Program-made: the position numbers and the translations under genes
Part shown: piece after piece, positions 5,057 through 54,424 of the stretch
How positions within the stretch are numbered: the first letter of the stretch is position 1
Layout: each line of letters starts with the position of its first letter
From: Gammaproteobacteria bacterium
GTDB lineage: Bacteria > Pseudomonadota > Gammaproteobacteria > Steroidobacterales > Foliamicaceae
Direction of reading: 5' to 3'
Assembly: GCA_009845905.1 (NCBI GenBank)
Contig: VXYS01000010.1
Coordinates: 94,321 to 158,320, forward strand
Length of the DNA: 64,000 nt
Notes under the pieces: model-generated
The model's input: the letters and a program-made list of their open reading frames with translations, nothing else
The model's database searches: none
What the model was told of the DNA's origin: nothing

Positions 5057-5196
5057 GCGCAATCCTCCCTGAGCGCATTGTAAGCCAAGCCAGCGTAGGG
5101 TCATCCCGGCAGTTTGAGGCTAAACTTGCCCATTCCGCCGGGCCGGGAGCATACGGCCGGCGGCATTTGACGGGAGTTTCCAAGGGAGTCTTCACA

Positions 5197-7798: not shown

Positions 7799-7891
7799 CT
7801 TTGTGTGCCTCCCTCTTTCGGGAGGCGCCATCCCTGGCTTGGTTTCGCCATCCCTGGCTTCAACACTCCCGCAAGAGGGAGGCACACAAAG
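7799..7891. repeat. family-1 structured intergenic repeat, copy A
   Basis: Perfect 19-nt terminal inverted repeat CTTTGTGTGCCTCCCTCTT / AAGAGGGAGGCACACAAAG. Inner clamp CGGGAG...CTCCCG. The core carries CGCCATCCCTGGCTT twice (7826-7840, 7846-7860). Lies between convergent genes. Confidence 0.85.
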
Positions 7892-7915
7892 GGGCTATCG
7901 TGGCAGCATCCTGCG

Positions 7916-9130
7916 TTAGAGGGAGTAGCTGTCGACCAGCGCGCCTGCGACCGAACGGCCGCCGTCGAGGCGGAGCCAGCAATCGGCGGCCGCGAGAGCG
8001 CCGGCCTGGCCGGGGCGTTGGGGGTGCACCAGCTTCAGCGCTCCCGTTTCGCTTTCGCGGCGGGCCAGCAGGAAGTGTGTGTGGCCTTCGCGCAGGTCGC
8101 AGGGATGCGCGAGCGGCATGCGCAGGGGTTGTTCGGCATCCATCGCCAGGATTGCGCGAATGCCGGGCCAGACCAGGAAACGCATGCCCGCGGCGGTGGC
8201 CAGCGGATTGCCGGGAAGACCGAATACCGGGGTCCCGTCGTCCAGCAGCGCCAACAGGGCCGGCTTGCCGGGCCGCATGGCGACGCCGTGAAAAACGATC
8301 CGGGCTCCCAGTTCCCGCAGCGCTCCCCGCAGGACATCGTGCCTCCCCGCCGAAGCGGACCCACTCGAGACCAGGACCCGGGCGCCGGACTCCCGCGCCT
8401 GTTGAAATTCCCGCGCCAGTTTTTCGGGATCATCCGCAACATGACGCGCTGTCGTCACGGATATTCCCCGTTCCGCGCACCAGGCGGCAAGCCACGACGC
8501 ATTGACGTTGGCTATCTCGCCGGGAGCAAGCGCGGCGCCGGGAGGGCGCACTTCGTCGCCCGTCGTCAGCAGGCCCAGCGGAGGCGGCCTGCGCACGTGC
8601 AATTCGCCGATTCCGGCGGCGGACAAGAGCGCGACATGCCCGGCGTGAAGGCGCTCGCCGGTGAAATCGAAAGCGGCGCCGGCCGGATACTCCTCGCCTT
8701 CAATGCGCAGGTTGCGTCCCTTCTCGACAGGCCCGGAAAAACGCAAAACAGTCGCGCCGCGCCGCTCGACCACCATCGCCTGCTCCAATGGCACGACCGT
8801 GTCCAGCGGGGGCGGCGTCAGAGCGCCCGTGGCGACCCGAAAGGCGCACCCGGAGCCGGGTTTACCGGCCTGTGCGTACGCACCGACCTTCAGCTCGCCG
8901 GCAACGGGAAGCTCCACCGGGGAATCCCCCGCGGCGCCAACCGTGTCGTCGGCGCATATGGCGAAGCCGTCCATGGCGGCGTTGCTGAACGCCGGCGAGG
9001 CGATAGCGCCGATGGCGGGCCGGGACGCCACCGCGCCAAGGGCCTGGCGGGCGGGAACCGGTTCGTCCCGCCACGGCGTACAGGCCGCGGCCACGGCGGC
9101 GGATGCCTCGCGATAGGGAATCAATTTCAT
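7916..9130 (-). CDS. moeA: molybdopterin molybdenumtransferase MoeA
   Basis: 404-aa ORF. The N-terminal pattern (ASPAFSNAAMDGFAI) and the length are typical of MoeA. Confidence 0.8.
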   Translation of the reverse strand: MKLIPYREASAAVAAACTPWRDEPVPARQALGAVASRPAIGAIASPAFSNAAMDGFAICADDTVGAAGDSPVELPVAGELKVGAYAQAGKPGSGCAFRVATGALTPPPLDTVVPLEQAMVVERRGATVLRFSGPVEKGRNLRIEGEEYPAGAAFDFTGERLHAGHVALLSAAGIGELHVRRPPPLGLLTTGDEVRPPGAALAPGEIANVNASWLAAWCAERGISVTTARHVADDPEKLAREFQQARESGARVLVSSGSASAGRHDVLRGALRELGARIVFHGVAMRPGKPALLALLDDGTPVFGLPGNPLATAAGMRFLVWPGIRAILAMDAEQPLRMPLAHPCDLREGHTHFLLARRESETGALKLVHPQRPGQAGALAAADCWLRLDGGRSVAGALVDSYSL

Positions 9131-9215
9131 TCAACAGCCGGAGCAATGGATTTGAGCCTTTTCGTTATACTCCAACTCAAACGCGAAGTCAGCGGGGGTG
9201 GCGGCGCCATTTCGC

Positions 9216-12200
9216 ATGAAAGACCGGATCATCGATTTATCGCTTGAACGTCGGCGGTCCACGCTGCTGGCGATGATCGGCATCGTGATTTTCGGGATCG
9301 TCGCGCGCGTTTCGATCCCGGTGGAGAGCGAACCCCGCATCGAAATCCCGTTCTACGTGATCACGGTCGTTCACGAGGGCATCTCTCCGGAAGATGCCAG
9401 GCGGCTGCTGATCCTGCCGCTGGAAATCGAACTCAAGGCCGTGGAAGGCGTCCGGGAAATCACCGGCACGGGCGCCGAGAACATGGCCATGGTGGGGGTG
9501 GAGTTCCAGACGGGAATCGACCTCGACGTAGCGCTGAGCGACGTGCGCGAGGCCGTGAACCGGGCCAAGCCCGAGTTCCCGTCCACGACGGAGGAGCCGA
9601 TTGTCGAGGAAACCGCGACCACCGACTACCCCGTGCTGCAGATCAACCTGGTAGGCCGGAACACCCCGGAGGAAACGCTCTACGCCGCAGCGCGCCGCCT
9701 TCGCGACCGGATCGAAATGGTAGGCCAGGTGCAGCTGGCGGCACTGCAGGGACACCGCGAGGAGTTCATGGAAATCCTCATCCGGCCGGAGCAGCTCGCG
9801 ACGTACCAGATGTCCGTGGAGGAGCTGTACGGGGCGCTCACGCGCAACAACCGGCTGATTGCGGCGGGCGCGATGGATTCCGCCCAGGGGAGCGTCTCGG
9901 TAAAGGTGCCCAGCGTCATCGAATCCACCGACGACCTGCTCGACATTCCGGTGCGCATCGAAGGCGACACGGTCGTGACCCTGAGTGACGTGGCTTCGGT
10001 GAGGCGCACGTTCAAGGACCGGGCCAGCTACTCCCATGCCAACGGCGAGCGTTCCATATCTGTGTTCGTCTACCGGCGCTCCGGCGCAAACAGCATCGAA
10101 ACGGCCACCGCGGTCCGTGAAGTGGCGGACGGTTTCCGCGATCGACTGCCCGTGGGCGTCAACATGTTCTATTCCCAGGACACGTCGCAGTTCGCCGCCA
10201 AGCAGATCGTCGAGCTGCAGGGGAACATCGTGACCGCGCTGGTGCTGGTCATGCTCGTGATATTCCCGGCCATGGGCCTGAGGAGCAGCCTGCTGGTGGC
10301 CGGCGCCATCCCGGTCTCCTTCCTTTTCGCGCTGATCTTCCTGTGGCTGTTCGGCCACTCGTTCAACTTCATGGTCATGTTCGGCATGCTGCTGGGGCTG
10401 GGCATGCTGATCGACGGCGCCATCGTGGTCACCGAGGATGCCGAACGGCGAATCACGGAAGGCGAAACCGAACTCGAGGCATACGGGGCGGCCGCCAAGC
10501 GAATGTTCCTGCCCGTGCTGGCCTCCACCGCGACCACTCTGGCGGCCTTCGTGCCGCTGATGTTCTGGCCCGGCGTGGCCGGCGCCTTCATGGGGTACCT
10601 TCCCATTACCCTGCTCTGGGTGCTGATCGGAGCGCTGCTCTATGCGTTGATATTCGCTCCGGTCCTAGGCACGACGTTCCGGCGCCGCAGCCGCGGGATT
10701 GCCGCGCCGCAGGCGGGCGCGGACAGCATGTGGGAACTGGACTGGGCGCGGCTGGGGCGTTTCGCGAGCGGTTACGGCCGCCTGCTGTCGCTGGCCGTGC
10801 GCCGTCCCCTGGCCACCGTCACCATCGTGATCGCGCTGGTCCTGGGCATATTCACGGTGCATGGCTCGCGCGATCTGGGCGTGCTTTTCTTCAACGAGAA
10901 CGACCCCACCTACGCCCAGGTGTTCGTGCGCGCACGGGGCAACCTGGACGTGGAGGAAGCCTACCGGCTGGTTGCCGAGGTGGAGGCAGCGGTCCTGGAG
11001 GTCCCGGGCATCAAGAACCTGAACATGTTCACCACGACCGGCGCGGGCCAGGCCCAGGGGCAGCGGATGCAGTACCAGGGCGGTTCGAGCGCAGACCGCA
11101 TCGGCGCCATGTTCGTCGAGATGGTCGAGAGCAGCCAGCGCGACACGACCGGCATGGAAGTCCTGGAGGAAGTCCGCCGGCGCACGCAGAGGTTCGGCGG
11201 CGTGATCATCGAGGTGCGGCCGTTCGAGAGCCAGATCACCGCCGGCAAACCGATCGCGCTGCAGTTCTCTTCCAACGAGCGTGAGCGTCTTGTTCCCGTG
11301 GTCGAAAGGGTGCGCGAGTACATCGTCAACGAGGTCGAGGGACTGAGGGACATCGAGGACACGCTTCCCGTGCCCGGCATCGAATGGCAGCTGGAAGTGG
11401 ACAGGGCCGTGGCGGGCCTCTACGGCGCCGATGTCTCGACCGTGGGGCTGGCCACGCAACTGGTGACGAACGGCGCCAAGCTGGGCGAGTACCGTCCCGA
11501 CGACGCGGACGACGCGCTGGACATCAGGATCCGCTACCCGACCGAAGACCGCGGCGTCAACGAACTCGACGACCTGAGGATCGTCACCCGCAACGGGCCG
11601 GTCCCATTGTCGAATTTCGTCACGCGGCGCGCGACGCCCCGGCTGGACACTATCCAGCGGGCCGACCAGGAAGACATCCACATGATCCGGGCCGGCGTGG
11701 CGCCCGGCGTGCTGCCCGACGCCAAGATCCGCGAGATTCAATCCTGGCTGGACAGCCAGACCTTCGATTCGGAGGTGGACGTCCGCTTCCGCGGCACGAC
11801 CGAGGAGCAGGAGGAGTCGATCGACTTTCTTTCCAAGGCCTTTTCCTTTGCATTGCTGCTCATGTTCGCGTTGCTGGTCACGCAGTTCAACAACATTTAC
11901 CAGAGCTTCCTGATCATGCTGGCGATCGTGCTGTCCACGGCCGGGGTGTTTCTGGGGCTTGTCATCACCAACCAGCCGTTCAGCGCGATATTGAGCGGGG
12001 TGGGCGTGGTGTCGCTGGCGGGCATTGTCGTGAACAACAACATTGTGCTGATCGACACCTACAACGTGGGGCGCAGGGAATTCCCCGACCGGGACATCGC
12101 CGAACTCATCGTGCTGACCGGATTGCAGCGGTTGCGGCCGGTGCTGCTGACCACCGTCACCACCGTGATCGGACTGCTGCCCCTGGCCAGCCACCAATCG

Positions 12201-12455
12201 GTGGATTTCATCAACCGCAAGTGGGTATCGGGAGGCGAGCTTTCGGGTTACTGGGTGCCTCTAGCCCAGGCCGTGGTGTCCGGACTGACCTTCGCCACGA
12301 TCCTGACGCTGATCCTGACGCCGGCGCTGCTGGTGCTGCCGAGCCGGCTCAAGGGGATGTTCTCGGGTGTTCTGACCGGACTGCGCAACAGGGCGCCGAA
12401 GCCGGTGCGGCTTCGCGGCGGGGACAGTTACGCGAACCGCTCTCCCGGCGTATGA
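9216..12455 (+). CDS. RND efflux transporter permease (AcrB/ACR_tran family)
   Basis: About 1080 aa with two 6-TM bundles and large periplasmic loops. AcrB-like N-terminus (IDLSLERRRSTLLAMIGIVIFGI). ATG at 9216; an alternative GTG lies at 9198. Confidence 0.9.
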   Translation: MKDRIIDLSLERRRSTLLAMIGIVIFGIVARVSIPVESEPRIEIPFYVITVVHEGISPEDARRLLILPLEIELKAVEGVREITGTGAENMAMVGVEFQTGIDLDVALSDVREAVNRAKPEFPSTTEEPIVEETATTDYPVLQINLVGRNTPEETLYAAARRLRDRIEMVGQVQLAALQGHREEFMEILIRPEQLATYQMSVEELYGALTRNNRLIAAGAMDSAQGSVSVKVPSVIESTDDLLDIPVRIEGDTVVTLSDVASVRRTFKDRASYSHANGERSISVFVYRRSGANSIETATAVREVADGFRDRLPVGVNMFYSQDTSQFAAKQIVELQGNIVTALVLVMLVIFPAMGLRSSLLVAGAIPVSFLFALIFLWLFGHSFNFMVMFGMLLGLGMLIDGAIVVTEDAERRITEGETELEAYGAAAKRMFLPVLASTATTLAAFVPLMFWPGVAGAFMGYLPITLLWVLIGALLYALIFAPVLGTTFRRRSRGIAAPQAGADSMWELDWARLGRFASGYGRLLSLAVRRPLATVTIVIALVLGIFTVHGSRDLGVLFFNENDPTYAQVFVRARGNLDVEEAYRLVAEVEAAVLEVPGIKNLNMFTTTGAGQAQGQRMQYQGGSSADRIGAMFVEMVESSQRDTTGMEVLEEVRRRTQRFGGVIIEVRPFESQITAGKPIALQFSSNERERLVPVVERVREYIVNEVEGLRDIEDTLPVPGIEWQLEVDRAVAGLYGADVSTVGLATQLVTNGAKLGEYRPDDADDALDIRIRYPTEDRGVNELDDLRIVTRNGPVPLSNFVTRRATPRLDTIQRADQEDIHMIRAGVAPGVLPDAKIREIQSWLDSQTFDSEVDVRFRGTTEEQEESIDFLSKAFSFALLLMFALLVTQFNNIYQSFLIMLAIVLSTAGVFLGLVITNQPFSAILSGVGVVSLAGIVVNNNIVLIDTYNVGRREFPDRDIAELIVLTGLQRLRPVLLTTVTTVIGLLPLASHQSVDFINRKWVSGGELSGYWVPLAQAVVSGLTFATILTLILTPALLVLPSRLKGMFSGVLTGLRNRAPKPVRLRGGDSYANRSPGV

Positions 12456-12500
12456 TTGACCCGTGTCTTATGGGCAACTGATTCGACTGCGGGGGTAGTT

Positions 12501-14498
12501 GTGAGATTAGCCGAAGAGTTGGCGCTGGTTCTTCTGAACGAAGACAGCGGCTATTTTGAACCCGTCGGCGCCTGGAACCTGTCCTGCGTGATCGCGGGCT
12601 CGGTGCTCGCGGACCTGTCGCTCGAATTCCGTATCGACACCGATACGGAGACGCTGACGCTTCTGGATGCGAAGGAAACAGGCGACCCCTTGCTGGATCC
12701 GGTGCTGGAAGAAATCGCCTCGGCGCCCCCTCCGGTGCACAACGCCCAGTACTGGATCGAGAAGACCGCGCAACGATCGGACGACGCGATGGACATCATT
12801 CTCGACCGGCTGGTCGAGAAGAACATTCTGGATCACGACTCGGGCGGGTTCTGGTCGCTCAGCCGCCAGGTATCGCGCACCGGAACGTACTCCGCGGACG
12901 ACGGATCGACGAAGCTGCAGGTCAAGACGCGAGTTCTTCGCGCAATCCTGGACGAAGAGATTCCCGATCCCCGGGATGTGATCCTCATCAGCCTGATTGC
13001 CGCATGCGACGCCCTGCCGCTGCTGCTCACCGAAGAAGAGTACGAGGAATCCCGCGAGCGCATCGATCTGCTCTGCAGGATGGACCTGGTGGGACGCGCC
13101 ATCGGCGCGGCTGTCAGGGAGAGTCAGGGACGCCCGGTACAGCAGCCCGTAGGGCGCACACGGCCGATTCCGGTCGCCAACCTGCTGAAGCTGATTCCGA
13201 ATCGAAACCTGAGGCGGGGCAATCTTTCAAGGATCCTGACGGATCTGTACAGGGAATACGGTCCGGTCTTCAGGATCAAGAAGCCCTTCTCGGAAAAGGG
13301 CGTTGTCGTGCTTGCCGGACCGGACACCAACGCATGGATCAACCGCAACGGCCGGACCTATTTCCGCACGCGAGACCACATGGCCGACTTCGAGCAACTG
13401 TACGGTGCGTCGCGGACCTTGCCCGGCATGGACGGCACAGAGCATTACCGCATGAGGAAGTCCCTGCGAGCCGGTTATTCCCGCGCGACGCTGGAGGCCA
13501 GGCTGGACGAAGTATATAAATTCTGCCGTGCGTCACTGGAGAAATGGGTCCCGGGCAAACCGATGCCAGGCGCCGCCGCATGCCAGGAGTTGATGAGCGT
13601 TCAGGTGTCGCAGCTCATGGTGGGCGTGGACGCGTCGGACCATATCGACGATCTCCTCAGCTACGAACACCGCTCGCTGGTCACGCATGTGCAGAAAGCC
13701 TTGCCGAAATTCATGATGCAGACGCCAGGCATGGCCAGGAAGAGGAAGCGCATTTTCGAGATGCTCAACCGGGTATTGAATGCGCACACGCCGGCGCAGC
13801 GCAAAGGCAAACCCAAGGACCTGGTCGATCATATTCTGAGCCTGCACGCCAGCGATCCGCAGTATTTCCCGGAGACCGATCTGAGCTTCATGCTGGTCGC
13901 GGGTTTCATCGCCAGCATTTACCTCGGCAGCGGGCTGAGCTTTGCCGTGTACGGCATGGCCAGCCATCCCGAAATCTACCGCCGGGTTCAGAAGGAAGCC
14001 GAGGCGCTGTTCGCCAACGGCGACCCGGGCAAGGACGATTTCACGAGATCCACAATCGACGTCGCCCACCGGGTGTTCCTGGAGTCCCAGCGACTGTACC
14101 CGGTCATTCCGATGCAGCTTCGCACCACGATGAATCACTGCGTGGTGCAGGGCTACAACATACCGAAGGACACGCGCGTGGTGTTCGCGCACACCGCCGC
14201 GCACCACCTGGAAGAGACTTTTCCCGATCCCACCAGATTCGATATCGACCGGTACGCGCCGCCCCGGGATGAGCACAAGCGCGCGGGAGCCTACGTGCCG
14301 TTCGGGCTGGGGACGCATCATTGCCTGGGGTCGAAATGGGTGGAACTGCAAATGACGATCAACCTGCTCCTCATCGCCTACTATTTCGACATCAGCGTCG
14401 TTCCGTCGGACTACGAGATGAGATTCAATCCGTTTCCCACCAGCGCCCCGAACAGCAAGTTTCGATTTACCATTGACAAGAGGCGTCACGACTTCTGA
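12501..14498 (+). CDS. GOLPH3/GPP34-like domain fused to cytochrome P450
   Basis: The N-terminal 225 aa or so match the bacterial GPP34 pattern (LAEELALVLLNEDSG, GDPLLDPVLEEIA, LVEKNILD, PDPRDVILISLIAACDAL). The C-terminal part is a P450 with ExxR (ESQRLYP), PDPTRFDIDRY and heme loop FGLGTHHCLGSKW. GTG at 12501 is preferred; the ORF is open from 12456. Confidence 0.85.
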   Translation: MRLAEELALVLLNEDSGYFEPVGAWNLSCVIAGSVLADLSLEFRIDTDTETLTLLDAKETGDPLLDPVLEEIASAPPPVHNAQYWIEKTAQRSDDAMDIILDRLVEKNILDHDSGGFWSLSRQVSRTGTYSADDGSTKLQVKTRVLRAILDEEIPDPRDVILISLIAACDALPLLLTEEEYEESRERIDLLCRMDLVGRAIGAAVRESQGRPVQQPVGRTRPIPVANLLKLIPNRNLRRGNLSRILTDLYREYGPVFRIKKPFSEKGVVVLAGPDTNAWINRNGRTYFRTRDHMADFEQLYGASRTLPGMDGTEHYRMRKSLRAGYSRATLEARLDEVYKFCRASLEKWVPGKPMPGAAACQELMSVQVSQLMVGVDASDHIDDLLSYEHRSLVTHVQKALPKFMMQTPGMARKRKRIFEMLNRVLNAHTPAQRKGKPKDLVDHILSLHASDPQYFPETDLSFMLVAGFIASIYLGSGLSFAVYGMASHPEIYRRVQKEAEALFANGDPGKDDFTRSTIDVAHRVFLESQRLYPVIPMQLRTTMNHCVVQGYNIPKDTRVVFAHTAAHHLEETFPDPTRFDIDRYAPPRDEHKRAGAYVPFGLGTHHCLGSKWVELQMTINLLLIAYYFDISVVPSDYEMRFNPFPTSAPNSKFRFTIDKRRHDF

Positions 14499-14532
14499 CC
14501 CGCGGGCCACGGTTTACACGGAATCTGCATAA

Positions 14533-15618
14533 ATGAAAATCAGGGAATCCCTGCGCAAACCATTGTGGGCCGGGCTGGTCCTTGCAGTTTGCGCCGTATG
14601 GCTGCTGTCCGGAATCCTGGGAGGCGACGACGACGATGGGCAGGCGTCGGTCGCTTCGCGCGCGGAAGCGCGGGACGAAATCGTCGTGCGGGTACGAACC
14701 AGCCGTGCGTCGGAGCAATCCAGGACGCTCACGTTGCGCGGCCGCACGCGAACCCGGCACGCGGTGACGGTGCGCGCCGAAACGTCCGGCCGCGTGGACG
14801 ACCGGCCGATCGATATCGGCGCGCAGGTGTCGGCAGGCGATGTGCTTTGCCAGGTGGAGGTCAATGATCGCGAACTGCGCGTTCGCGAGGCCGGCGACGC
14901 GGTCGAGCTGGCGACGCTGGAGTACGAAGGCATGAAGACCCTGCGCGAACGGGGCCTTCAGCAGGAGATCGCGGTGGCCCGTGCCAAGGCCCAGTTGAGT
15001 TCCGCGCGCCGCCAGCTCCTGGCCAGCGAACTGGAACTTGACAATACCGCCGTGGTTGCTCCGTTCGCCGGGTTCGTGGAAGAAACTCATGCGGAGGTGG
15101 GCGACTACCTGCAGATGGGCAGCCCCTGCGCCACCATTCTCGATCTCGATCCGATCTACGTGGAGGCCGCCGTCACGGAACAGCAGTATCCGCAACTGGA
15201 CCTGGGCGCCGAGGTGCGGATCACGATGGCCACCGGCAATACGGCCCGCGGATCGCTTACCTTTATCGGCAAGCAGTCGGCGGACCAGTCACGCACCTAT
15301 CCCATCGAAGTGACGGTCCCAAACCCGGACTTTTCGATTTCCTCGGGGTTGAGCGCGGAGGTCGAAGTCTCGCTGCATGCCCAGCCGGCGCACAAGGTGG
15401 GAATGTCCTACGTGGTTCTGGACGCCAACGGAGAAATGGGCGTGCGGGCGGTTGACGACGATCAGCGGGTTCTCTTCTACCCGATCGACGTGGTCCGGGA
15501 AGACCCGGACGGGCTGTGGGTCTCCGGATTGCCGGCCGAAGTCACGTTGATCACGGTGGGCCAGGAATTCGTCAGTCCCGGCCAGCAGGTCAGAGTCCAG
15601 CGCGACACCGCAACATAG
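14533..15618 (+). CDS. RND efflux periplasmic adaptor (membrane fusion protein, HlyD family)
   Basis: 361 aa. N-terminal TM anchor, lipoyl/coiled-coil pattern (AETSGRV, QVSAGDVLCQVE, NTAVVAPFAGFV). Confidence 0.85.
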   Translation: MKIRESLRKPLWAGLVLAVCAVWLLSGILGGDDDDGQASVASRAEARDEIVVRVRTSRASEQSRTLTLRGRTRTRHAVTVRAETSGRVDDRPIDIGAQVSAGDVLCQVEVNDRELRVREAGDAVELATLEYEGMKTLRERGLQQEIAVARAKAQLSSARRQLLASELELDNTAVVAPFAGFVEETHAEVGDYLQMGSPCATILDLDPIYVEAAVTEQQYPQLDLGAEVRITMATGNTARGSLTFIGKQSADQSRTYPIEVTVPNPDFSISSGLSAEVEVSLHAQPAHKVGMSYVVLDANGEMGVRAVDDDQRVLFYPIDVVREDPDGLWVSGLPAEVTLITVGQEFVSPGQQVRVQRDTAT

Positions 15619-15639: not shown

Positions 15640-16671
15640 TCACGCCGGTTTGCGCGCCAGAAAACAGTAAAGCGGCGTGAATATCCCGGTCTTGCCGCCT
15701 GCAACATAAGCGTCCGCGGTCCGGTCCATGAGCCGGATCACGGTGTTGGAACCCTTCGGGAAGAGTCCGAAACCCTCCGTGAGCTTCACCATGCCGATCA
15801 TTGCCTTTCGACCCGCAGGCGTCCTGCGCAGGAGATTCCGGAATGTGCCGGTGTTTCCCTCCATCGGCTGATACCAGGGGGTGTATGGATCTTCCTGCAT
15901 CGCCCTGTCCATCCCCTCGATCACTTCGAACCCGACCGCCTCCAGTGCCTGATCGACCTCCGCGAAGGTTGCGATCTCATTCAATGCGATCCCGTGCATC
16001 AGTTCGCGCCTGATGGCCCGGTGGCGGGAGCTGTTCGAGTCGAACTCTTTCGTCATGCACATTTCCTGCCCCCAGAAAAACGCCCCGGGCTTCAACACGC
16101 GGAAGATCTCGGCAAAAGCGCCCTTCTTGTCCGGCGCGTGGCAGGTGGACTCGATCGCGTAGCCCGCGTCGAATGAGTCGGGCTCGAACCTGCTCATGTC
16201 CATGAAGCTGCAGTGGGCGTAGTCGGCCATGTGATCAAGACCTGCCTCAACGTTCCTTCGCTTCGCCTTTTCCAGTTGCTGCTCGTTGTTGTTGAGGCAG
16301 ACCACGCGGGCGCCGGACTCGCGCGCGACCCGGCGCATTGGCCCCCCGACCCCGCAGCCCACGTCGATGACCGTCATTCCCTCCGTCAGCCGGAGCTTGC
16401 CGATCATCAGCCGCTGATGCCGAAGGATCGAGTCGTCAAGGCTTTCGCCCGGCCTCAAGGGGGCGAAGTGCAGCGATTCGTTCCACCCGAACTGCATGAA
16501 CTCGCTGCACAGCGAGTAGTAGTCGTTGACCGTCTCGGCGTGGTCATATTTGCGGTCGTTGGAGCCCCCTTCTTCCCGCCGGTCGAGCCAGCCTTCAAAC
16601 GATTCGACGCGATTGGCAACGGACCAGCCGCGGTAGGCGCTCTTCAGCGACGTGGACAATTTCGCCAGCAT
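15640..16671 (-). CDS. sterol C-24 methyltransferase-like SAM-dependent methyltransferase (Erg6/SMT family)
   Basis: 343 aa, alignable by eye to yeast Erg6 over the full length: YYSLCSEFMQFGWNESLHFAP, VIDVGCGVGGP, LNNNEQQLEKAK, YAIESTCHAP, VLKPGAFF, PWYQP, and the C-terminal GGKTGIFTPLYCFLARKP (sterol-MT C-terminal domain). Confidence 0.85.
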   Translation of the reverse strand: MLAKLSTSLKSAYRGWSVANRVESFEGWLDRREEGGSNDRKYDHAETVNDYYSLCSEFMQFGWNESLHFAPLRPGESLDDSILRHQRLMIGKLRLTEGMTVIDVGCGVGGPMRRVARESGARVVCLNNNEQQLEKAKRRNVEAGLDHMADYAHCSFMDMSRFEPDSFDAGYAIESTCHAPDKKGAFAEIFRVLKPGAFFWGQEMCMTKEFDSNSSRHRAIRRELMHGIALNEIATFAEVDQALEAVGFEVIEGMDRAMQEDPYTPWYQPMEGNTGTFRNLLRRTPAGRKAMIGMVKLTEGFGLFPKGSNTVIRLMDRTADAYVAGGKTGIFTPLYCFLARKPA

Positions 16672-16716: not shown

Positions 16717-17796
16717 TCAGGCGCCGAACTTGGCGCCGCGCGCGGCATGAATCGGGGCAGGCTTGAGGCTGCGCACACGCGCGCGGCTCTCTTCGGCATC
16801 CGGATAGAACTGCTCGCAGTATTTCCGGTAGGTCATGATCTCGCCGTCCGAGCGGCTCAGGATCGGCAGCGGCTGGTAGCGCTTGTTTTCCCAGATGGCG
16901 ACGTCCTGGCGCACATCGTGCTTGACCCGAGATACGAAGAACCGGGTCAGCCAGTTCGCGGGAAGACAGCGAAGCAGTAATGTCGCCAGCCATTTCTGCC
17001 CGGATTCCCAGCGCCGGATCTGCAGGGCGACCACGAGCTTGATGTAGGTGTCGTCAATGGGCGTGGACAGGATCCACTGGCGCAGTTTCAATCCGCTGAC
17101 GCGCTCATGAAACTCGACGAACGAATAGCCGAAACCCCAGACGTGAGTCGTTGCAACAACGTCGGTCAGAACCGGCACGCCAAGCAGCTTCACGTTGCGC
17201 CGGAAAACGAAGCTGTTGCGCAGGCAGGCGCCGTCCACCTGCACGTCTCCGACCTGCTTGACCGCCGCGTAGCCATGCACGTAGCGGAAATGGGCGATGT
17301 CCACGGAGTTCTCCGAGGTTTCCTGCGGGTGGCCGCGCAACTGCACGCTTCCGTAATGGAGGCGGTGCCATTCCCTGTCCGGCCACTCGGGGAGCTCCCA
17401 CTGCGGACCGCGCCCCACCGGGCTCCACCAGGCGAGAATGAGGCCGTTGAGCTCGCGTGTCTCGTAAACATTGAGCCGCGCGGTTCTGGGCGGCGGGGCA
17501 TCCGGCGTGGCCACGCACCTGCCGGTGGCATCATATTCGAAGCCGTGGAAGGGGCAGACCAGCCGCCCGTTTCTGACGCAGCCGCCGCCGTCCGGCCCCA
17601 GGTGCCCGCCCAGATGCGGGCAGTAGGCCTCGGACACGCAAATCTCTCCGTCGTTGTCGCGCCAGGTCACGATCTGCCGGCCCATCCATTCTTTCTGGAG
17701 AAGACCGCCTTTGGGCAGGTTCCTGGCGATCTCCACGAGATACCAGCCTTCCGGGTACCTGCCCGGCGGGTAATACCGCTTGTTCGCCAGTTTCAT
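16717..17796 (-). CDS. Rieske [2Fe-2S] non-heme iron oxygenase, KshA/Neverland-like
   Basis: 359 aa. Rieske motif CPHLGGH...CPFHGF. Mononuclear iron motif ENSVDIAHFRYVH. C-terminal DVAIWENKRY...DGEIMTYRKYCEQFY resembles the KshA/Neverland tail. Confidence 0.85.
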   Translation of the reverse strand: MKLANKRYYPPGRYPEGWYLVEIARNLPKGGLLQKEWMGRQIVTWRDNDGEICVSEAYCPHLGGHLGPDGGGCVRNGRLVCPFHGFEYDATGRCVATPDAPPPRTARLNVYETRELNGLILAWWSPVGRGPQWELPEWPDREWHRLHYGSVQLRGHPQETSENSVDIAHFRYVHGYAAVKQVGDVQVDGACLRNSFVFRRNVKLLGVPVLTDVVATTHVWGFGYSFVEFHERVSGLKLRQWILSTPIDDTYIKLVVALQIRRWESGQKWLATLLLRCLPANWLTRFFVSRVKHDVRQDVAIWENKRYQPLPILSRSDGEIMTYRKYCEQFYPDAEESRARVRSLKPAPIHAARGAKFGA

Positions 17797-18000: not shown

Positions 18001-20472
18001 TCAGAAGCCGTAGGTAAGCGTTACGCCGACCTGGCGACCGCGGGGCAGCGTGATGGCGAAGCCGCGCGGTGTGCTGGACGGATTGCCCAGTTCGCCGGGG
18101 ACATAGCCGGGGATGCTGGCGTGGGGGCGCAAACCGCCGGAGCGCCGGTCGATGTAGCGCAGGATGTCGAGCGGAGTGTCGTCATCGAACAGGTTCTTGC
18201 CCCACAGGGCGATTTCCAGGTTGTCGCGGCGAACACCCAATCGCAAGCCAACCCGGGTGAGCGCACCGGTTTCGATCAGATTGTGGATTTGCGAAAAGCG
18301 CGAGCCTTCGTAAACAACGTCACCGGTGAAAAACCAGGCAAAGCCACTCGCCATGACGTCGCCGCTGTAGCGCGCCACCAGGGAGGCCATGTGCTCGGGT
18401 ATCCGCGGCACTCTCTTGCCGGCCACCGAGCCAAGGCGGTTCAGGTCGCTGCGCGAGCCGTTGGCGCCGTTAAGGTCCGCCTGATCGATATTGACGTATT
18501 CCTGAATCTCCGCGTTGGTCCAGGCATAGCCGACATTCACGACCAGTTTGTCGGTCAGCGCCGTCTGAAGATCGACCTCCAGGCCGGCAACGCGGGTCTC
18601 GCCCACATTGTCGAGCAGCGACGCGCTGCCCCCGGTGGGCGTCTCGATCACGGTCGTGAACTGCTGGTCGGTCACTTCAGTCAGATAGGCGGCCACATTG
18701 AGCGCCGTCCTGCCGTCCATCAGCACCGTCTTGTAGCCCGCTTCGTAGTTCCAGGCCACTTCTTCCTCCACCGCGCGGAAGGATTCATCGGGGTTGCCGT
18801 CCACGCCGATCGGTACCTGGGTGTTGAAGTCGCCGGGCTTGGAACCCTTGGCGATATTCAGATACAGATTCGCGTTCTCGTTCGCCTTGTAGCTCAGCGT
18901 GAATCTTGGATTGACGGAATCGAACTCGGATTCGAACCGGCCGCGAAGCGGCGTCCCGCCGGGTTCATAAACGGAAAGCGTTATTTCATCGGTGGCGGCG
19001 CGCGCCTCCGCCGTGGCGGTCCACTTGTCGCTCAGATCCCATTCGAGGGCAGCGAAAACGGCCGTGTTGGTGACGTCGTCATAGTCGATGGTGGAGTTGG
19101 GCGACACTGCCCTGGCCACCAGGCCCCAGCCGTACCGGTCGCTCAGCGCCGCGGCCACGTCGGTCATCACCTTGTCGTCGCGGCTTTCGTGTTGCTCGCC
19201 ACGATAGTAGTACAGGCCGATGGTGGCCCGGAATTCGCGGTCCGACGGAGACGAAAGCCGGAGCTCCTGGGAGAAGTCGGACTGGTCGTTGCCAAGTATG
19301 CGATTGAACTGGCCGCAGAACCCCGCGGCGCAAGCGAACCCTCTGCCCAGGATAGGACGCAGGAAAGGCGGCAGGCCGTTCACGAAGGCAACTCCGAAAT
19401 CGTAGCCGCCGTAGGTTCCGTCAAGGCCCGTTTCGGACTCGTCGTCGATCAGGCCGGTGAGGCTGGACACTCGCCAATCGTTGGCCAGGTCGTAGTGCAT
19501 GGTCAGCGAAGCGGTAATCCGATCCATGCGGTTGCCCGCGCCGCTGTCGGAATCAAGCTCCGCGGTATTCAGGGCCACCGGCAGATTGCGCAGGGCTTCG
19601 CCAATGTAGTACTCGCGCGCCCTCGGGCCGGTCACGCCGGTAATGTTCGCGCTTCCGGAAGACTCGCCGCGAAAGCAGCAGTTATTGTGCTCGCGGGCTT
19701 GCAGGGCAAGGGCCGGGTGGCTGTCGTCCACCTTCTGGTAGGACAGCGCCAACGTGGCCTCGAACCGCTCGTTGGGCGTGAAGTACAGCTTGCCGGATAT
19801 GTTGGTGGTCTTTTGCTCGTTGACTTCATCCCCGGTGAGCGTGTTGACGTGCTCGCCGCCGTACTGGTCGTAGCCCGCCCCAATCCGGAACCAGGCGGTA
19901 TCCTCAACCAGAGGGCCGCTGATCCAGCCCTGCACCTCATAGGACTCGTGTTCGCCGCCGCCCACCGTGATTTCGCCTTCCAGCTCTTCCGAAGGCCGCC
20001 GGGTGACGTAGTTGATGGCGCCGGCGTAGGTGCCCCGCCCGTATTGCGCGGATTGCGGGCCCTTGATGATTTCGACGCGCTCGATGTTGGCGAAATCGAC
20101 GGACGAAACCTTGCCGCCCACATAGATGCCGTCCACAAAGGTGGACACCGCCTTCACGTTGGCAATGCCATTGATGATCGTGGTTTGTCCGCGCATGGCC
20201 GGCCGGTCCTGGTTGGAGCTGCGCCCGAAACCGGACTGGAACGAGAAGCCCGGGGTGTAGAGCGCGATTTCGTTAACGGATCTGATGCCCAGTTCGCGGA
20301 TGTCGTTTGCGGTGAAGGCGCTGACCGCGATCGGGATGTCCTGCACGGACTCCTCGCGCTTGCGGGCGGTCACGATGATTTCCTCGAGCATGGCTTCCTG
20401 CGTAACCGCAGGACGCGGGGCGACGATCACGCCCGCAGCCAGGACGCAAATTACGGCAAGTCTGAATCTCAT
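18001..20472 (-). CDS. TonB-dependent receptor
   Basis: 823 aa. Signal peptide, plug motif EEIIVTARKREESVQDIPIAVSA, C-terminal beta-barrel ending TLTYGF. RBS GGGAGGA. Confidence 0.9.
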   Translation of the reverse strand: MRFRLAVICVLAAGVIVAPRPAVTQEAMLEEIIVTARKREESVQDIPIAVSAFTANDIRELGIRSVNEIALYTPGFSFQSGFGRSSNQDRPAMRGQTTIINGIANVKAVSTFVDGIYVGGKVSSVDFANIERVEIIKGPQSAQYGRGTYAGAINYVTRRPSEELEGEITVGGGEHESYEVQGWISGPLVEDTAWFRIGAGYDQYGGEHVNTLTGDEVNEQKTTNISGKLYFTPNERFEATLALSYQKVDDSHPALALQAREHNNCCFRGESSGSANITGVTGPRAREYYIGEALRNLPVALNTAELDSDSGAGNRMDRITASLTMHYDLANDWRVSSLTGLIDDESETGLDGTYGGYDFGVAFVNGLPPFLRPILGRGFACAAGFCGQFNRILGNDQSDFSQELRLSSPSDREFRATIGLYYYRGEQHESRDDKVMTDVAAALSDRYGWGLVARAVSPNSTIDYDDVTNTAVFAALEWDLSDKWTATAEARAATDEITLSVYEPGGTPLRGRFESEFDSVNPRFTLSYKANENANLYLNIAKGSKPGDFNTQVPIGVDGNPDESFRAVEEEVAWNYEAGYKTVLMDGRTALNVAAYLTEVTDQQFTTVIETPTGGSASLLDNVGETRVAGLEVDLQTALTDKLVVNVGYAWTNAEIQEYVNIDQADLNGANGSRSDLNRLGSVAGKRVPRIPEHMASLVARYSGDVMASGFAWFFTGDVVYEGSRFSQIHNLIETGALTRVGLRLGVRRDNLEIALWGKNLFDDDTPLDILRYIDRRSGGLRPHASIPGYVPGELGNPSSTPRGFAITLPRGRQVGVTLTYGF

Positions 20473-20678: not shown

Positions 20679-21731
20679 TCAGTCCGGGGGTTCGCCGGGA
20701 ATGCGGGCGGTGATGCAGGCGCCGCTTCCGGGAGGGCTGGCCACTTCCACCTCGCCGCCGTGCGCCTCGGCGATCAGGCGGCACAGGTAGAGGCCAAGGC
20801 CATGGCGCCCGGTTCCCGCGCCGCGGGACGGGTCCGCCCTGTAGAAGGCGCCGGTAACCCGCTCCAGGTGCTCGGGTTCGATTCCGGGACCGTGGTCCTG
20901 CACGCGAATGACTGCCGCGCCGTCCTCCATGCGCAGGCTGAGCTCAACCGGCATCCCGTCCCGGGGGTTGTAGCGCAAGGCATTCTCCACCAGGTTGCGG
21001 ACCAGCATTCTCAGGCGGGCGGCGTTCACGCTCAGGTGTGCCGGAGACGGCGGCACGCTCAGCGACACGCGGTGGCGGTCGTTGGGGAAATCGCCGCGCA
21101 GGACTTCGGCCATCAACTTGTTCAGATTGACCCGCGAGCGTGACATCCGCCCGCCCTGCGTGTTCAGGCGTTCGCCCTCCAGCAATTCCGTGATCATGCG
21201 TTCCATGCTGGACAGGTCGTACTCCAGGTGCGAGCGCACGTCCTTGTCGTGGATGAACTCCAGCGCCAGCCGGGCGCGGGTCAGCGGCGTGCGCAACTCG
21301 TGGCTCATGGCCAGCAGCAACTCGCGCTGGCCGTCGAGCATCCCCTTCACCTGGTCCGCCATGCGGTTGATGCGTTGCGTCAGCCTGCCGAGCTCGTCCT
21401 GACGGCGGATCGGGATCCGGTATTCGAGTTGCCCTTCTCCGATCCGGCGCGTGCCCTGCCGGATGTCTTCCAATGGATAGAAAAGCCGCCGCACAGCCAG
21501 GTAGCAGCCGACGAAAACCACCGCTATCGTGGGGTAACCAAGGACACGCACGACGGTCATATTCTCCGGATTCCCCTGGGGCGGGAAAATCGAGAAGAGG
21601 GCCGCCGTGGCCGCCGTAATGACGAAAAAACTTGCGAAGAAGATCAGGACCAGGCGAACGGGAAGTGAGCGCCAGGCGTTCACCGGCTTGCGCGCCAGCC
21701 ATTTCAGGGCGCGGAGGAATCGGTTATTCAT
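20679..21731 (-). CDS. sensor histidine kinase (HAMP-HisKA-HATPase)
   Basis: 350 aa. Two N-terminal TM segments, a HAMP-like linker, H-box MSHELRTPLT, G-boxes DHGPGI and GLGLYLCRLIAEAHGG. Overlaps the response-regulator gene by 4 nt. Confidence 0.9.
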   Translation of the reverse strand: MNNRFLRALKWLARKPVNAWRSLPVRLVLIFFASFFVITAATAALFSIFPPQGNPENMTVVRVLGYPTIAVVFVGCYLAVRRLFYPLEDIRQGTRRIGEGQLEYRIPIRRQDELGRLTQRINRMADQVKGMLDGQRELLLAMSHELRTPLTRARLALEFIHDKDVRSHLEYDLSSMERMITELLEGERLNTQGGRMSRSRVNLNKLMAEVLRGDFPNDRHRVSLSVPPSPAHLSVNAARLRMLVRNLVENALRYNPRDGMPVELSLRMEDGAAVIRVQDHGPGIEPEHLERVTGAFYRADPSRGAGTGRHGLGLYLCRLIAEAHGGEVEVASPPGSGACITARIPGEPPD

Positions 21732-22477
21732 AGAACGATCGTGGTGTTTGAGGGCGGGACGTCATCGCTCCCGGGATCGCGACTGCTTTCGCCCTGTCCT
21801 TTCAGGAAGACGTAGCCCGCGCCGCGTATCGTGCGGATGAAGCGGGGATTGGATGGATCATCGTCCAGTTTCTGGCGCAGCCGGCTGATATTGATGTCCA
21901 CCGAGCGCGAAAATATGTTCGGTTCGATGCCGCGCAGTTCCGAGAGTATTTCGTCGCGGGTGTAGACGCGTCCGGGCTCGCCGGCAAGCAGTTGCAGCAG
22001 GTTGAACTCCATCGCCGTGAGATCGAGCAGGTCGTCGTTCAGGTGCGCCTCGCGGCGATCGAAGTCAAGCCGCAGGGGACCGTGTTCCACCACCCCCGAA
22101 ATGGTGGACGAACGCTGGACGCGCCGCAGGATGGTCTGGATCCGGGCGACCAGTTCGCGCGGCTCGAACGGCTTGGGCACGTAATCGTCGGCCCCGACCT
22201 CCAGACCCACCACACGGTCGGTCACGTCGCCGCGCGCGGTGAGCATGATGATCGGCACGCTGCTGGTCTTGCGGATCTCGCGGCACAACTCGAAGCCGTC
22301 GCGCCCCGGCAGCATGACGTCGAGAATCACCAGGTCCGGTTCGAAGGCAGCCATCTTCCTGAGCCCGGTATCGCCTTCCAGCGCGGACTCGAGCTCGAGA
22401 TCGAAACGACTGAAATAGGCCCGCAGAAGCATGGCGAGCTTTGCGTCGTCGTCGATCAGGAAGATGCGGGATGGCAT
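21728..22477 (-). CDS. OmpR/PhoB-family response regulator
   Basis: 249 aa. Receiver domain (IFLIDDD, DLVILDVMLPG, KPF) plus winged-helix output domain (FNLLQLLAGEPGRVYTRDEIL, RFIRTIRGAGYVF). Confidence 0.9.
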   Translation of the reverse strand: MPSRIFLIDDDAKLAMLLRAYFSRFDLELESALEGDTGLRKMAAFEPDLVILDVMLPGRDGFELCREIRKTSSVPIIMLTARGDVTDRVVGLEVGADDYVPKPFEPRELVARIQTILRRVQRSSTISGVVEHGPLRLDFDRREAHLNDDLLDLTAMEFNLLQLLAGEPGRVYTRDEILSELRGIEPNIFSRSVDINISRLRQKLDDDPSNPRFIRTIRGAGYVFLKGQGESSRDPGSDDVPPSNTTIVL

Positions 22478-22826: not shown

Positions 22827-23405
22827 TCAGGTCGCCCCCGGAATCTTCCTCCCCCCGGGGGCGGCCCCGCCGCCCTCCAGAACACCTCCCAATTCCACCA
22901 GCAGCGGCGTGGCCGCCGCATAGAACAAACCCACGGTCAGATAGAAGGCCACCCCGGCTGCCGATCCGGCGCCGAGGACGATTCCCGAGAAATACGCAAA
23001 TGGCGCCCCGGTGGCGCCCAGGACGGCAGCCAGCACGCGTCTGCCGCGCAGCCACGCCAGGCCGTCGATACTCATCAGCGAAAACGCGCCCCACAAGGCC
23101 AGTATCCAGGCCGGCGCAAGGACCGAATCAGGCCAGCCGGGCGCATAGCTGACCCAGCCCGCCCGCACGACGACGGTCTCCATGACCAGGCCCATTGCGA
23201 GTCCGCTTGCCAGCACCAGCAGCTCCCTTCGCCGGTTCCGCGAAAAAAGCACCTGCATTCCGGCAAAGGCCAGCAGCGCCAGCGGCCCGAGCCAGACGTT
23301 GCCGGCCGCGGCGCCCAGCACGGTGCACAGCCAAACGGCCTTGAACCCGGCCACGCCTCTGACCACGGTCACGAGGCGGCGCCATTCGGGAAGGCGCAGC
23401 GTCAT
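22827..23405 (-). CDS. polytopic membrane protein, function unknown
   Basis: 192 aa starting MTLRLPEW. The ATG overlaps the GNAT stop (ATGA). About five hydrophobic helices. May be DUF2878-like, but I am not certain. Confidence 0.6.
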   Translation of the reverse strand: MTLRLPEWRRLVTVVRGVAGFKAVWLCTVLGAAAGNVWLGPLALLAFAGMQVLFSRNRRRELLVLASGLAMGLVMETVVVRAGWVSYAPGWPDSVLAPAWILALWGAFSLMSIDGLAWLRGRRVLAAVLGATGAPFAYFSGIVLGAGSAAGVAFYLTVGLFYAAATPLLVELGGVLEGGGAAPGGRKIPGAT

Positions 23406-23854
23406 GCGCCGTGTTCCATGACGTCGTACCCGCAGTGGTCGAACCCCAGGGCCCGGTAGGCCGCGATCGCGCGGCTGTTGTCGCGCTCCACGTACAGGCG
23501 CACCCGGCACTCCGCCTCGCCGGCTTCTCCGAGGACGTGTTCGCAGAGCGCTCGGAACACGCCGCTGCCCCGGTGTTCCGGCGCCGTATACACGCTTTGC
23601 AGCCACCAGATCATGCAGTTCCGCCAATCGCTCCATTCGGTCGTGAGCATCAGCTGTCCCAGCCGTTCCCCGGTGGAGGAAACGGCCATGAAGTAGCGCC
23701 CCAGCGCAGGGTCGGAGAACATCCGGCGCACGCCGGCCTCGACCGTCTGCGGATCGAGGCGCAAGCCCTCGGATTCCTCGGCCAGCGCGATGTTGAACCG
23801 GACGATCGTCGGAGTGTCCGCGGGGTGGGCCGGCCGGATGATGGTCCCGCTCAT
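23402..23854 (-). CDS. GNAT family N-acetyltransferase
   Basis: 150 aa. Acetyl-CoA binding motif LQSVYTAPEHRGSGVFRAL. C-terminal NSRAIAAYRALGF. Confidence 0.85.
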   Translation of the reverse strand: MSGTIIRPAHPADTPTIVRFNIALAEESEGLRLDPQTVEAGVRRMFSDPALGRYFMAVSSTGERLGQLMLTTEWSDWRNCMIWWLQSVYTAPEHRGSGVFRALCEHVLGEAGEAECRVRLYVERDNSRAIAAYRALGFDHCGYDVMEHGA

Positions 23855-35963: not shown

Positions 35964-35967
35964 AGCG

Positions 35968-36903: not shown

Positions 36904-36931
36904 TCTAGCGCGCCCGCCTCACTACTCGATC

Positions 36932-37039: not shown

Positions 37040-37049
37040 CCCCCAAGGG

Positions 37050-53028: not shown

Positions 53029-53030
53029 CC

Positions 53031-54395: not shown

Positions 54396-54424
54396 CCGCG
54401 CCGGGCCCGGGGAGGGAGCCCGCC

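Follow-up and report, generated by a model that had tools for sequence, protein, structure and literature searches.

Does a bacterial gene that resembles a eukaryotic sterol C-24 methyltransferase still methylate sterols at C-24? The question is raised by a gene at positions 15640..16671 (minus strand) of a 64,000-nucleotide stretch of contig VXYS01000010.1, hereafter the window, which belongs to a Gammaproteobacteria bacterium. A preliminary description of this DNA had presented the gene as an Erg6-type sterol methyltransferase (SMT) homologue that may produce 24-alkyl sterols in a bacterium, possibly a host-associated one. Molecular evidence for sponges in the Precambrian comes mainly from side-chain-alkylated steranes such as 24-isopropylcholestane and 26-methylstigmastane, and we know of no enzymes for several of the sponge-sterane alkylations. 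Here we propose, at about even chances, that the window gene encodes a functional S-adenosylmethionine (SAM)-dependent C-methyltransferase of a neofunctionalised SMT subfamily, which acts on a non-standard sterol substrate or carbon within a tailoring and export module.

A divergent sterol methyltransferase with an altered Region I

The gene is an intact and uninterrupted open reading frame (ORF) with an ATG start, and encodes a divergent SMT-family protein of 343 amino acids. The protein combines a class I SAM-dependent methyltransferase domain (Pfam Methyltransf_11, E 2e-18) with a C-terminal Sterol_MT_C domain (PF08498; residues 281-342, positions 15646..15831, minus strand) that scores 64.7 bits against a cut-off of 21.7 (E 8.2e-18), and it aligns with S. 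cerevisiae Erg6 over 321 amino acids at 38.6% identity (BLASTP, E 5e-78), which bears out the family assignment of the preliminary description. The Erg6 sequence used throughout agrees with 28 of the 28 residue/position pairs quoted in Brown & Welander 2025. Eukaryotic C-24(28) SMTs, namely Erg6, SMT1 and SMT2, share the two-domain architecture and are 37-40% identical to the window protein; they have in common with it Region II, E195 of Region III, G217, H90 and the C-terminal block. In particular, the SAM-binding Region II motif DVGCGVGGP (D103-P111; 16339..16365, minus strand), which is of the DxGxGxxGP type and invariant across the clade of the window protein, keeps all of D125, G127, G129, G132 and P133 in Erg6 numbering. 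The residues essential in yeast Erg6, H90, D125, G129, P133 and E195, are kept as H68, D103, G107, P111 and E174, together with G217 of Region IV and a C-terminal GGKxxxFTP...ARKP block. No NCBIfam model claims the protein, and a fold search with it found no SMT structure in the PDB, the best matches being the generic class I C- and O-methyltransferases TleD, RebM and GPP-MT; the search confirms a methyltransferase fold and adds nothing further. The AlphaFold2 model has a confidence score (pLDDT) of 82, and the loop of Region I is modelled with low confidence.

Unlike the eukaryotic enzymes, which belong to a sterol pathway of the endoplasmic reticulum, the window SMT is bacterial and encoded amid transporter, P450 and Rieske genes, and it departs from them in Region I (CSEFMQFGWNESLHF) and in having Ile at position 249. 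Specifically, the sterol-binding Region I motif (Y52-F69, YYSLCSEFMQFGWNESLHF; 16465..16518, minus strand) carries S56, M59, N64 and L67 in place of Erg6 T78, Y81, G86 and F89, and deviates from the canonical pattern Y81-x-[YFW]-G-W-G-x-x-F89-H-F. The preliminary description had found nearly every diagnostic SMT block in place; the blocks that it quoted are indeed all present in the translation (YYSLCSEFMQFGWNESLHFAP, VIDVGCGVGGP, LNNNEQQLEKAK, YAIESTCHAP, VLKPGAFF, PWYQP and GGKTGIFTPLYCFLARKP), but it passed over the clade-invariant changes in Region I. The comparison of sterol-binding residues that it had proposed shows E195 kept and positions 78, 81, 86 and 89 of Region I altered. Of 25 residues that are conserved in every SMT found active (Brown & Welander 2025, a preprint), the window protein keeps 20 and deviates at five (T78S, G86N, F89L, G147C and L341M). 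F89, G86 and T78 are kept in all active SMTs of yeast, plant, sponge and bacterial origin, whether methylating, ethylating or propylating (Brown & Welander 2025). In the models of Brown & Welander (2025), the docked sterol side chain comes within 5 Å of residues 81 and 249, and published work shows that these two positions control the number of methyl groups added. Gly249 is stated to be necessary for propylating (24-isopropyl-forming) SMTs, which combine it with Phe81 and/or Phe83; the window protein has Ile228 at the former position and Phe at position 83.

These substitutions mark a clade rather than a single protein. M81 and L89 are invariant in all 121 sequences considered (the query and its 120 closest homologues), and I249, which is Ile228 in the window and D249 in Erg6, occurs in 117 of the 121. 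Such clade-wide invariance points to selection for a new state rather than to drift. A HMMER search of 1.84 billion cluster representatives returned only 264 at E<=1e-30. Among about 100 full-length SMT family representatives, some 85 carry the full TDFYE[YFW]GWGxSFHF motif and some 95 keep the Y81/F89 pair, while the M81/L89 pair is limited to the clade of the window protein; a few near relatives of the clade, one of them from Dadabacteria, are aberrant in Region I separately. Phylogenetic placement with other SMTs was a check proposed in the preliminary description: in neighbour-joining (NJ) trees, the only kind built, the core clade is monophyletic in 83% of 300 bootstraps and nested among the bacterial SMTs of sponge symbionts. 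The clade appears to be a neofunctionalised SMT subfamily that is confined to sponge-dwelling bacteria.

Deviations at conserved positions may mean non-function or a different substrate (Brown & Welander 2025), and the first of these options would make the window gene a catalytically dead or decaying paralogue. Five of 25 positions deviate, a clade member is probably inactive in vitro (see below) and a neighbouring Rieske gene decays in some lineages, all of which would fit such a paralogue. Against it stand the ratios of non-synonymous to synonymous substitution rates (dN/dS) of the window SMT to nine relatives, which are 0.06-0.17 and show that the gene is under purifying selection, as well as full-length ORFs of the clade in more than 100 loci from at least eight phyla, invariant SAM-binding and catalytic residues, conserved synteny, and the fact that the substitutions are themselves invariant within the clade. 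We therefore consider a dead paralogue extremely improbable, and a pseudogene is ruled out by the dN/dS values and the conservation pattern. Purifying selection, invariant catalytic residues and clade-invariant substitutions instead favour a different substrate over non-function.

An assayed relative and the sterol gene clusters

Bacterial SMTs of sponge symbionts have already been published (Brown et al. 2023; Kelly et al. 2022), so that the statement of the preliminary description that such enzymes complicate the biomarker reading is correct but, having been in the literature since 2023, not new. One member of the divergent clade is among the enzymes already assayed. The propylating SMT 'A. 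aerophoba 10000835 1 of 2' was rebuilt by us from OCR-damaged, codon-optimised DNA in the preprint supplement, and its counterpart is protein P0271 of a Nitrospira metagenome-assembled genome (MAG). The contig that encodes it, L114, has a gene order identical to that of the published cluster: second SMT, small gene, propylating SMT, SMO-OSC fusion, CYP51, ERG24, SdmA and SdmB. The second SMT of L114 (8109-9143) is 67% identical to the window protein over its full length and bears the clade signature YYDLCSEFMVYGWGESLHF. Its identity to Erg6 is 35.159% by BLAST, and the published value for JGIcombinedJ30088_100008359, listed as '2 of 2' among the assayed enzymes of Brown et al., is 35.16%; because the two values agree, we take the L114 protein to stand for '2 of 2'. 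Since F89 is present in all functional SMTs and '2 of 2' has L89, the latter was probably inactive on desmosterol and 24-methylenecholesterol, the only substrates used in the assays of Brown et al.; this inactivity is our deduction from two papers and is stated in neither. With a 67%-identical clade member probably inactive on the standard Delta24 substrates, the production of 24-alkyl sterols that the preliminary description had suggested is not the best-supported reading of the window gene.

The '2 of 2' SMT belongs to the same clade as the window protein, has the same Region I signature, and likewise neighbours a fusion of a GPP34 domain with a cytochrome P450 (GPP34-P450) and a Rieske gene of KshA_C type, there a remnant. 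It differs in residing in a Nitrospira symbiont and in adjoining a complete de novo sterol cluster, whereas the window copy stands alone with a pump of the resistance-nodulation-division (RND) superfamily and a TonB receptor. Functional sponge-symbiont SMTs (Brown et al. 2023), such as the propylating '1 of 2', share with the window SMT the habitat, the family and a horizontal spread across phyla. They are, however, only 42-44% identical to it, have a canonical Region I and G249, and lie in SMO-OSC/CYP51/ERG24/SdmAB clusters, in contrast to the window gene, which has M81, L89 and I249 and no sterol cluster nearby.

To what, then, does the divergent gene attach elsewhere? Seven canonical sterol clusters were looked up via their SMT1 proteins (L114-L120). 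Three of the seven (L114, L115 and L118) contain a clade SMT (67% identical to the window protein), a GPP34-P450 (46-48%) and a KshA-type Rieske oxygenase (49-52%, a remnant in L114), and in these three the module lies beside or is interleaved with SMT1, SdmB, SdmA, ERG24, CYP51, the SMO-OSC fusion and an MMPL transporter with a sterol-sensing domain (SSD). L115 and L118 also carry a flavoprotein. A GPP34-P450 is additionally carried by L116 and L117, so that this gene lies within 10 kb of five of the seven canonical clusters, and the remaining two clusters lack the accessory genes. Of all the evidence for sterols as substrates of the module, this physical linkage is the strongest. As a separate observation, the SMO-OSC fusions (P0391-P0510) are at least 78% identical across matches named Nitrospira, Rhodospirillales, Acidimicrobiia and Alphaproteobacteria, which is consistent with a recent horizontal spread of the whole sterol cluster.

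The window itself is different. Its 64 kb hold no Pfam match to an oxidosqualene cyclase (OSC), squalene epoxidase, CYP51, ERG24 or SdmB, and a motif scan of 113 related loci found no OSC, squalene-hopene cyclase (SHC), ERG24 or CYP51 motif, while the clusters of L114-L120, as positive controls, were detected. When megabase-scale contigs were matched by their length between hit lists, with the best 120 matches of each search covered, the OSC list contained 8 of 22 contigs with a canonical SMT and 0 of 50 with a divergent SMT (Fisher p = 2.7e-5); likewise, none of these 50 was among the matches listed for canonical SMT. These results suggest that the genomes with a stand-alone module, the lineage of the window included, are without the shared OSC cluster. 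As the window lacks genes for sterol synthesis, its SMT may depend on a substrate of extracellular origin.

The same results bear on a conventional alternative, in which the window protein is an ordinary C-24 SMT that makes 24-methyl(ene) sterols but is specialised for a nucleus absent from the published assays, such as that of lanosterol, cycloartenol, zymosterol or 4-methyl intermediates. The full SMT domain architecture with all essential residues, an identity of about 40% to a rice cycloartenol C-24-methyltransferase-like protein and the restriction of the published assays to desmosterol and 24-methylenecholesterol are compatible with it. Additionally, the divergent SMT is paired with a canonical one in L114, L115 and L118, where the paralogues could split the nucleus or the methylation step; plant SMT1 and SMT2 divide labour. 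The changed positions 81, 89 and 249, however, line the side-chain end of the pocket and not the nucleus end in published docking, every active SMT keeps F89, G86 and T78, and nothing in the stand-alone genomes points to the making of early sterol intermediates, which together leave this alternative possible but doubtful.

Likely partner enzymes and transporters of the module

The gene convergent with the SMT encodes the GPP34-P450 fusion of 680 amino acids (12456..14498, plus strand), in which a GPP34 (GOLPH3-like) domain at residues 18-222 precedes a cytochrome P450 domain at residues 249-658 (Pfam). Full-length homologues, with a median length of 674 amino acids, lie within 10 kb of the SMT in 60 of 80 genome loci. 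Among 101 loci with a callable SMT, many of which are cut by contig ends so that all neighbour counts are lower bounds, the full-length fusion lies at most 10 kb away in 67 loci and no more than two genes away in 58. A fusion of GPP34 and cytochrome P450 named 'GPP34_L' has been reported from no bacteria other than sponge symbionts (Microbiome 2025, PMC11706023), and the window fusion falls within its definition, with an N-terminal GPP34, a C-terminal P450 and a sponge-symbiont genome; architecture is identical and the relatives are likewise sponge symbionts. In that account, which mentions neither sterols nor methyltransferases, GPP34_L is proposed to be a secreted effector that binds phosphatidylinositol 4-phosphate (PI4P) and blocks phagosome maturation (PMC11706023). 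Distinct from it, the window-type fusion is operon-linked to an SMT and genomically tied to sterol clusters; our literature search found no paper linking GPP34 with sterols in sponges. The tie of GPP34-P450 to sterol enzymes in most loci suggests a role in lipid metabolism rather than that of a secreted PI4P effector, and the locus joins two separate literatures, that on sponge-symbiont SMTs and that on GPP34-P450 as a symbiosis hallmark.

Both halves of the fusion are unusual. The P450 is not a CYP51, given 21% identity to the CYP51 of the cluster and an I-helix with AGFIAS instead of GQHTS; among PDB entries, CYP51s match no better than E ~1e-20, much as CYP3A and CYP120 do. Throughout the family the Cys ligand and the ExxR motif do not vary. 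The I-helix motif reads A-[AG]-x-[IVL]-A-S: all 76 sequences have Ala where Thr is normally conserved, and the acidic partner residue is absent. This pattern suggests an unusual, perhaps substrate-assisted or peroxide/isomerase-like, activation of oxygen. For the GPP34 domain (12510-13150, plus strand), we compared the window protein and 75 homologues with a human GOLPH3 sequence in which W81, R90, R171 and R174 fall at their published positions. W81 is kept in 72 of 76, while R90 is replaced by A, V or I, R171 by E or D, and R174 by I, V or M. By this low-identity (~20%) alignment, the window fusion has non-basic residues at three of the four arginine positions with which GOLPH3 binds PI4P, and the PI4P site of the phagosome-effector model seems not to be conserved, which at ~20% identity should be taken as a lead only. 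The L118 sterol cluster contains two GPP34-P450 paralogues (4270-6285 and 12370-14379) that are 48% and 32% identical to the window protein and imply at least two subfamilies of the fusion.

On the other side of the SMT, 45 bp upstream and on the same strand, lies a gene for a KshA-type Rieske non-haem iron oxygenase of 359 amino acids (16717..17796, minus strand), which is the likely operon partner of the SMT. It matches the Pfam models Rieske (E 1.6e-19) and KshA_C (E 2.8e-25), and its best PDB match is KshA, the 3-ketosteroid 9alpha-hydroxylase (E 9e-29). The ligands of the [2Fe-2S] cluster and the iron, CPH...CPFH and ENSVDIAHFRYVH (DxxHxxxxH iron motif), are invariant in 41 of 41 homologues. 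By its best PDB match the protein is a steroid-type Rieske oxygenase, and at most a candidate KshA orthologue; no other genes for steroid degradation and no KshB-like reductase were recognised near it, although no search was aimed at them. The protein is not the bacterial sterol C-4 methyl oxidase SdmA, since it scores only 45.5 bits on NCBIfam NF052579 against a cut-off of 600 and aligns with the genuine SdmA of the sterol cluster over only 87 amino acids of the Rieske domain. Orthologues with 45-54% identity occur in about 40 of the 101 loci. Within the lineage of the window (L001-L008), an intact copy occurs in the window itself, L002-L004 and L008; L001, L006 and L007 have none, and L005 keeps only a 44-residue remnant. 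A 97-residue remnant in the Nitrospira cluster L114 shows that the loss is recurrent.

The enzymes are embedded among transporter genes. An RND (AcrB-type) inner-membrane transporter (9198..12455, plus strand; Pfam ACR_tran, E 2e-150) ends where the GPP34-P450 gene begins, and an RND membrane-fusion (periplasmic adaptor) protein (14533..15618, plus strand; HlyD_D23 and HlyD_3; NCBIfam RND_mfp, 147.7 bits against 94.9) follows the fusion, which gives the unusual order of permease, GPP34-P450 and adaptor over 9198-15618 on the plus strand. The junction of stop and start at 12455/12456 implies translational coupling of the enzyme with the efflux pump. No gene for an outer-membrane factor is present at the window RND locus, and related lineages carry one. 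Upstream of the Rieske and SMT genes lie a TonB-dependent outer-membrane receptor (18001..20472, minus strand; Plug and TonB_dep_Rec_b-barrel), which is syntenic only in the window's own lineage (L001-L008), and further upstream a two-component system of uncertain membership in the module, with a HAMP histidine kinase and an OmpR-type regulator (20679..22477, minus strand), which is colinear in close relatives only.

Across the 101 loci, a transporter of the RND superfamily usually adjoins the SMT. The synteny of the clade SMT with GPP34-P450, a KshA-type Rieske oxygenase and RND or MMPL lipid transporters extends over at least eight phyla of sponge symbionts, and the Rieske gene and genes for RND or MMPL(SSD) transporters are found repeatedly in Gammaproteobacteria, Chloroflexota, Rhodothermales, Thermodesulfobacteriota and Rhodospirillales. 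Proteobacterial loci have a tripartite AcrB-type pump with adaptor and outer-membrane factor. Their Chloroflexota counterparts encode an MMPL protein that matches the sterol-sensing/Patched-SSD domain and is often accompanied by an LppX/LprG-type lipoprotein plus an MFS transporter. A flavoprotein of the amine-oxidase family, about 455 amino acids long and found in L115 (8239-9597), L116 (19269-20627), L118 (6348-7712) and Chloroflexota loci such as L048 (11298-12689), accompanies both the module and canonical sterol clusters, is 79-81% identical between the Chloroflexota loci and L115/L118, and was not found beside the window SMT. RND-superfamily transporters of triterpenoids include HpnN for hopanoids and BstA for sterols in Methylococcus. 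As with these, the window has an RND or MMPL transporter encoded beside triterpenoid-modifying enzymes; it differs from HpnN and MMPL proteins in that its pump is a tripartite AcrB-type efflux system with an adaptor.

A different use of this gene content is conceivable. The P450, the Rieske oxygenase and the RND pump would form a modification-and-efflux system, serving to detoxify compounds abundant in sponge tissue, if the enzyme acted on a hydrophobic substrate other than a sterol, such as another triterpenoid, a terpenoid of the sponge or a xenobiotic. The AcrB-type pump and adaptor that flank the SMT, the TonB receptor and two-component system nearby, the lack of sterol genes in the window and the probable inactivity of a clade member on two sterols would all fit; SMT-like enzymes of Botryococcus methylate squalene or botryococcene. 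Yet three genomes have the SMT, P450 and Rieske genes intermingled with OSC, CYP51, ERG24 and SdmAB, the partner transporter of Chloroflexota has a sterol-sensing-domain match, and the window protein retains both the Sterol_MT_C domain and the sterol-binding E195. We regard a non-sterol substrate as unlikely.

We therefore return to a neofunctionalised SMT that acts on sterols, for which the following course can be proposed. SAM would bind through Region II of the SMT, and its methyl group would be added to an isolated double bond of the sterol via a carbocation, to be resolved by the pair His68/Glu174 (Erg6 H90/E195). Met59, Leu67 and Ile228 (Erg6 Y81, F89 and D249) would reshape the side-chain pocket, so that most likely another sterol substrate, or a carbon other than in the classical Delta24 to C-24 reaction, is used. 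Through its GPP34 domain the P450, which would otherwise be soluble, is probably recruited to the membrane or to the lipid substrate. The sterol would be oxidised by the P450, joined in some genomes by the Rieske oxygenase, and moved across the envelope by an RND or MMPL system, presumably for export. The module would have been horizontally transferred; in some symbionts, such as Nitrospira, it is attached to a complete de novo sterol cluster, and the gammaproteobacterium of the window probably acquires its sterol externally, perhaps from the host or from neighbouring symbionts.

Several points weigh against this proposal. NJ support for the clade falls to about 51% when its two most distant representatives are added. 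The altered residues may do no more than adjust specificity for the nucleus, with C-24 still the target, and the inactivity of '2 of 2' could reflect poor expression in E. coli. The absence of OSC from the stand-alone genomes rests on indirect matching within the best 120 matches only, and sterol clusters occur in some sponge Gammaproteobacteria and Dehalococcoidia (Kelly et al.). Several close relatives have lost the Rieske gene, which makes the Rieske oxygenase accessory and the module a loose one. On the transport side, tripartite RND pumps usually export, which gives no direct support to uptake of host sterols, and the synteny of the TonB receptor is limited to the lineage of the window.

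A more specific and very unlikely version of the neofunctionalised reading is that the M81/L89/I249 clade alkylates sterol side chains elsewhere than at C-24/C-28, by C-26 methylation or by forming a cyclopropane on Delta25(27) sterols, for example (epi)codisterol. If so, it would provide a route to sponge sterols of the aplysterol, petrosterol and 26-methylstigmastane types, bacteria and not the sponge would supply the biomarker precursors, and the GPP34-P450 proteins would be sterol-tailoring enzymes of the same pathway. More generally, a widespread second SMT lineage in sponge symbionts, so far set aside as probably non-functional, is under selection, and its likely partners, GPP34-P450, KshA-type Rieske oxygenase, amine-oxidase-like flavoprotein and RND/MMPL transporters, constitute a clonable gene set. 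If the stand-alone versions use host sterols, symbionts would remodel the host sterol pool, affecting membranes of the holobiont and the interpretation of sponge sterol profiles. The clade as a selected, signature-bearing subfamily, its conserved module and the attachment of the module to sterol clusters appear to be unreported.

Sponge hosts, bacterial context and other features of the window

The guess that the bacterium is host-associated is supported by its relatives, which are sponge symbionts; the closest genomes are MAGs of sponge-symbiont Gammaproteobacteria. The best 80 genome matches are almost all MAGs with names that mark a sponge origin, such as the SB06xx, RHO, COS, IRC and APA bins, Ca. 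Poriferihabitaceae and A. aerophoba SAR202 bin90. A scan of 241 million metagenome records yielded 33 loci, none of them on a contig of an assayed SMT, and the assignable ones come from sponge metagenomes: Sarcotragus foetidus (LXNI), Petrosia ficiformis (LXNJ) and Aplysina aerophoba (Ga0209021, Ga0209754 and JGIcombinedJ30088). We take metagenome MKWU to be from Aplysina aerophoba as well, and the Ga0209543/Ga0209544 and JGI24796J26693 contigs presumably come from A. aerophoba too. Homologues with 65-73% identity occur in many lineages, including Gammaproteobacteria, Rhodospirillales, Paracoccaceae, Dehalococcoidia/SAR202, Dadabacteria, Rhodothermales and Thermodesulfobacteriota, a taxonomic spread that points to horizontal transfer inside the sponge microbiome.

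The bacterial context of the gene, and its likeness to the neighbouring genes in codon usage and GC content, were likewise confirmed. GC is flat at 0.62-0.67 across the window and 0.63-0.64 in the SMT gene, whose GC at third codon positions is 0.82, compared with 0.72-0.89 in the neighbours. The window contains the housekeeping genes uvrA, ssb, miaB-phoH-ybeY-corC-lnt and hisD. The region from ~5.6 to 25.5 kb is colinear with independent assemblies, at ~93% nucleotide identity to MAG WTGP01000012.1, 83-95% to four further MAGs and ~89% to the complete 2.83-Mb chromosome OZ220729.1. Eukaryotic contamination and a chimeric contig are thus ruled out by the housekeeping genes and by colinearity with five MAGs and a complete chromosome.

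Other features of the window concern different functions. The segment 28255-34890 looks like a cluster for aromatic O-demethylation or hydroxylation, with an FAD monooxygenase (3-hydroxybenzoate 6-monooxygenase-like), two tandem Rieske/VanA_C oxygenases, an MFS_2 transporter and an aldehyde dehydrogenase; on the SdmA model, with its cut-off of 600 bits, its Rieske/VanA_C proteins reach only 94. At 35055-38054 on the minus strand are three tandem FGE-sulfatase (SUMF1-like) paralogues (E 1e-59 to 4e-69). A plus-strand ORF at 7805-9247 overlaps a minus-strand one at 7916-9130, and because the domain matches (MoeA_N and MoCF_biosynth) fall on the minus-strand ORF only, the 480-residue plus-strand ORF is probably a shadow ORF of high-GC DNA. 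At 22827-23918 (minus strand) a DUF2878 protein has an N-terminal extension of ~185 residues without a domain match, and its synteny is kept in the relatives of the window. Finally, a DUF1800/DUF1501 pair followed by a double SnoaL-like protein lies at 51304-55396 (plus strand), and another SnoaL-like gene is found at the end of the window (63240-63899, minus strand).

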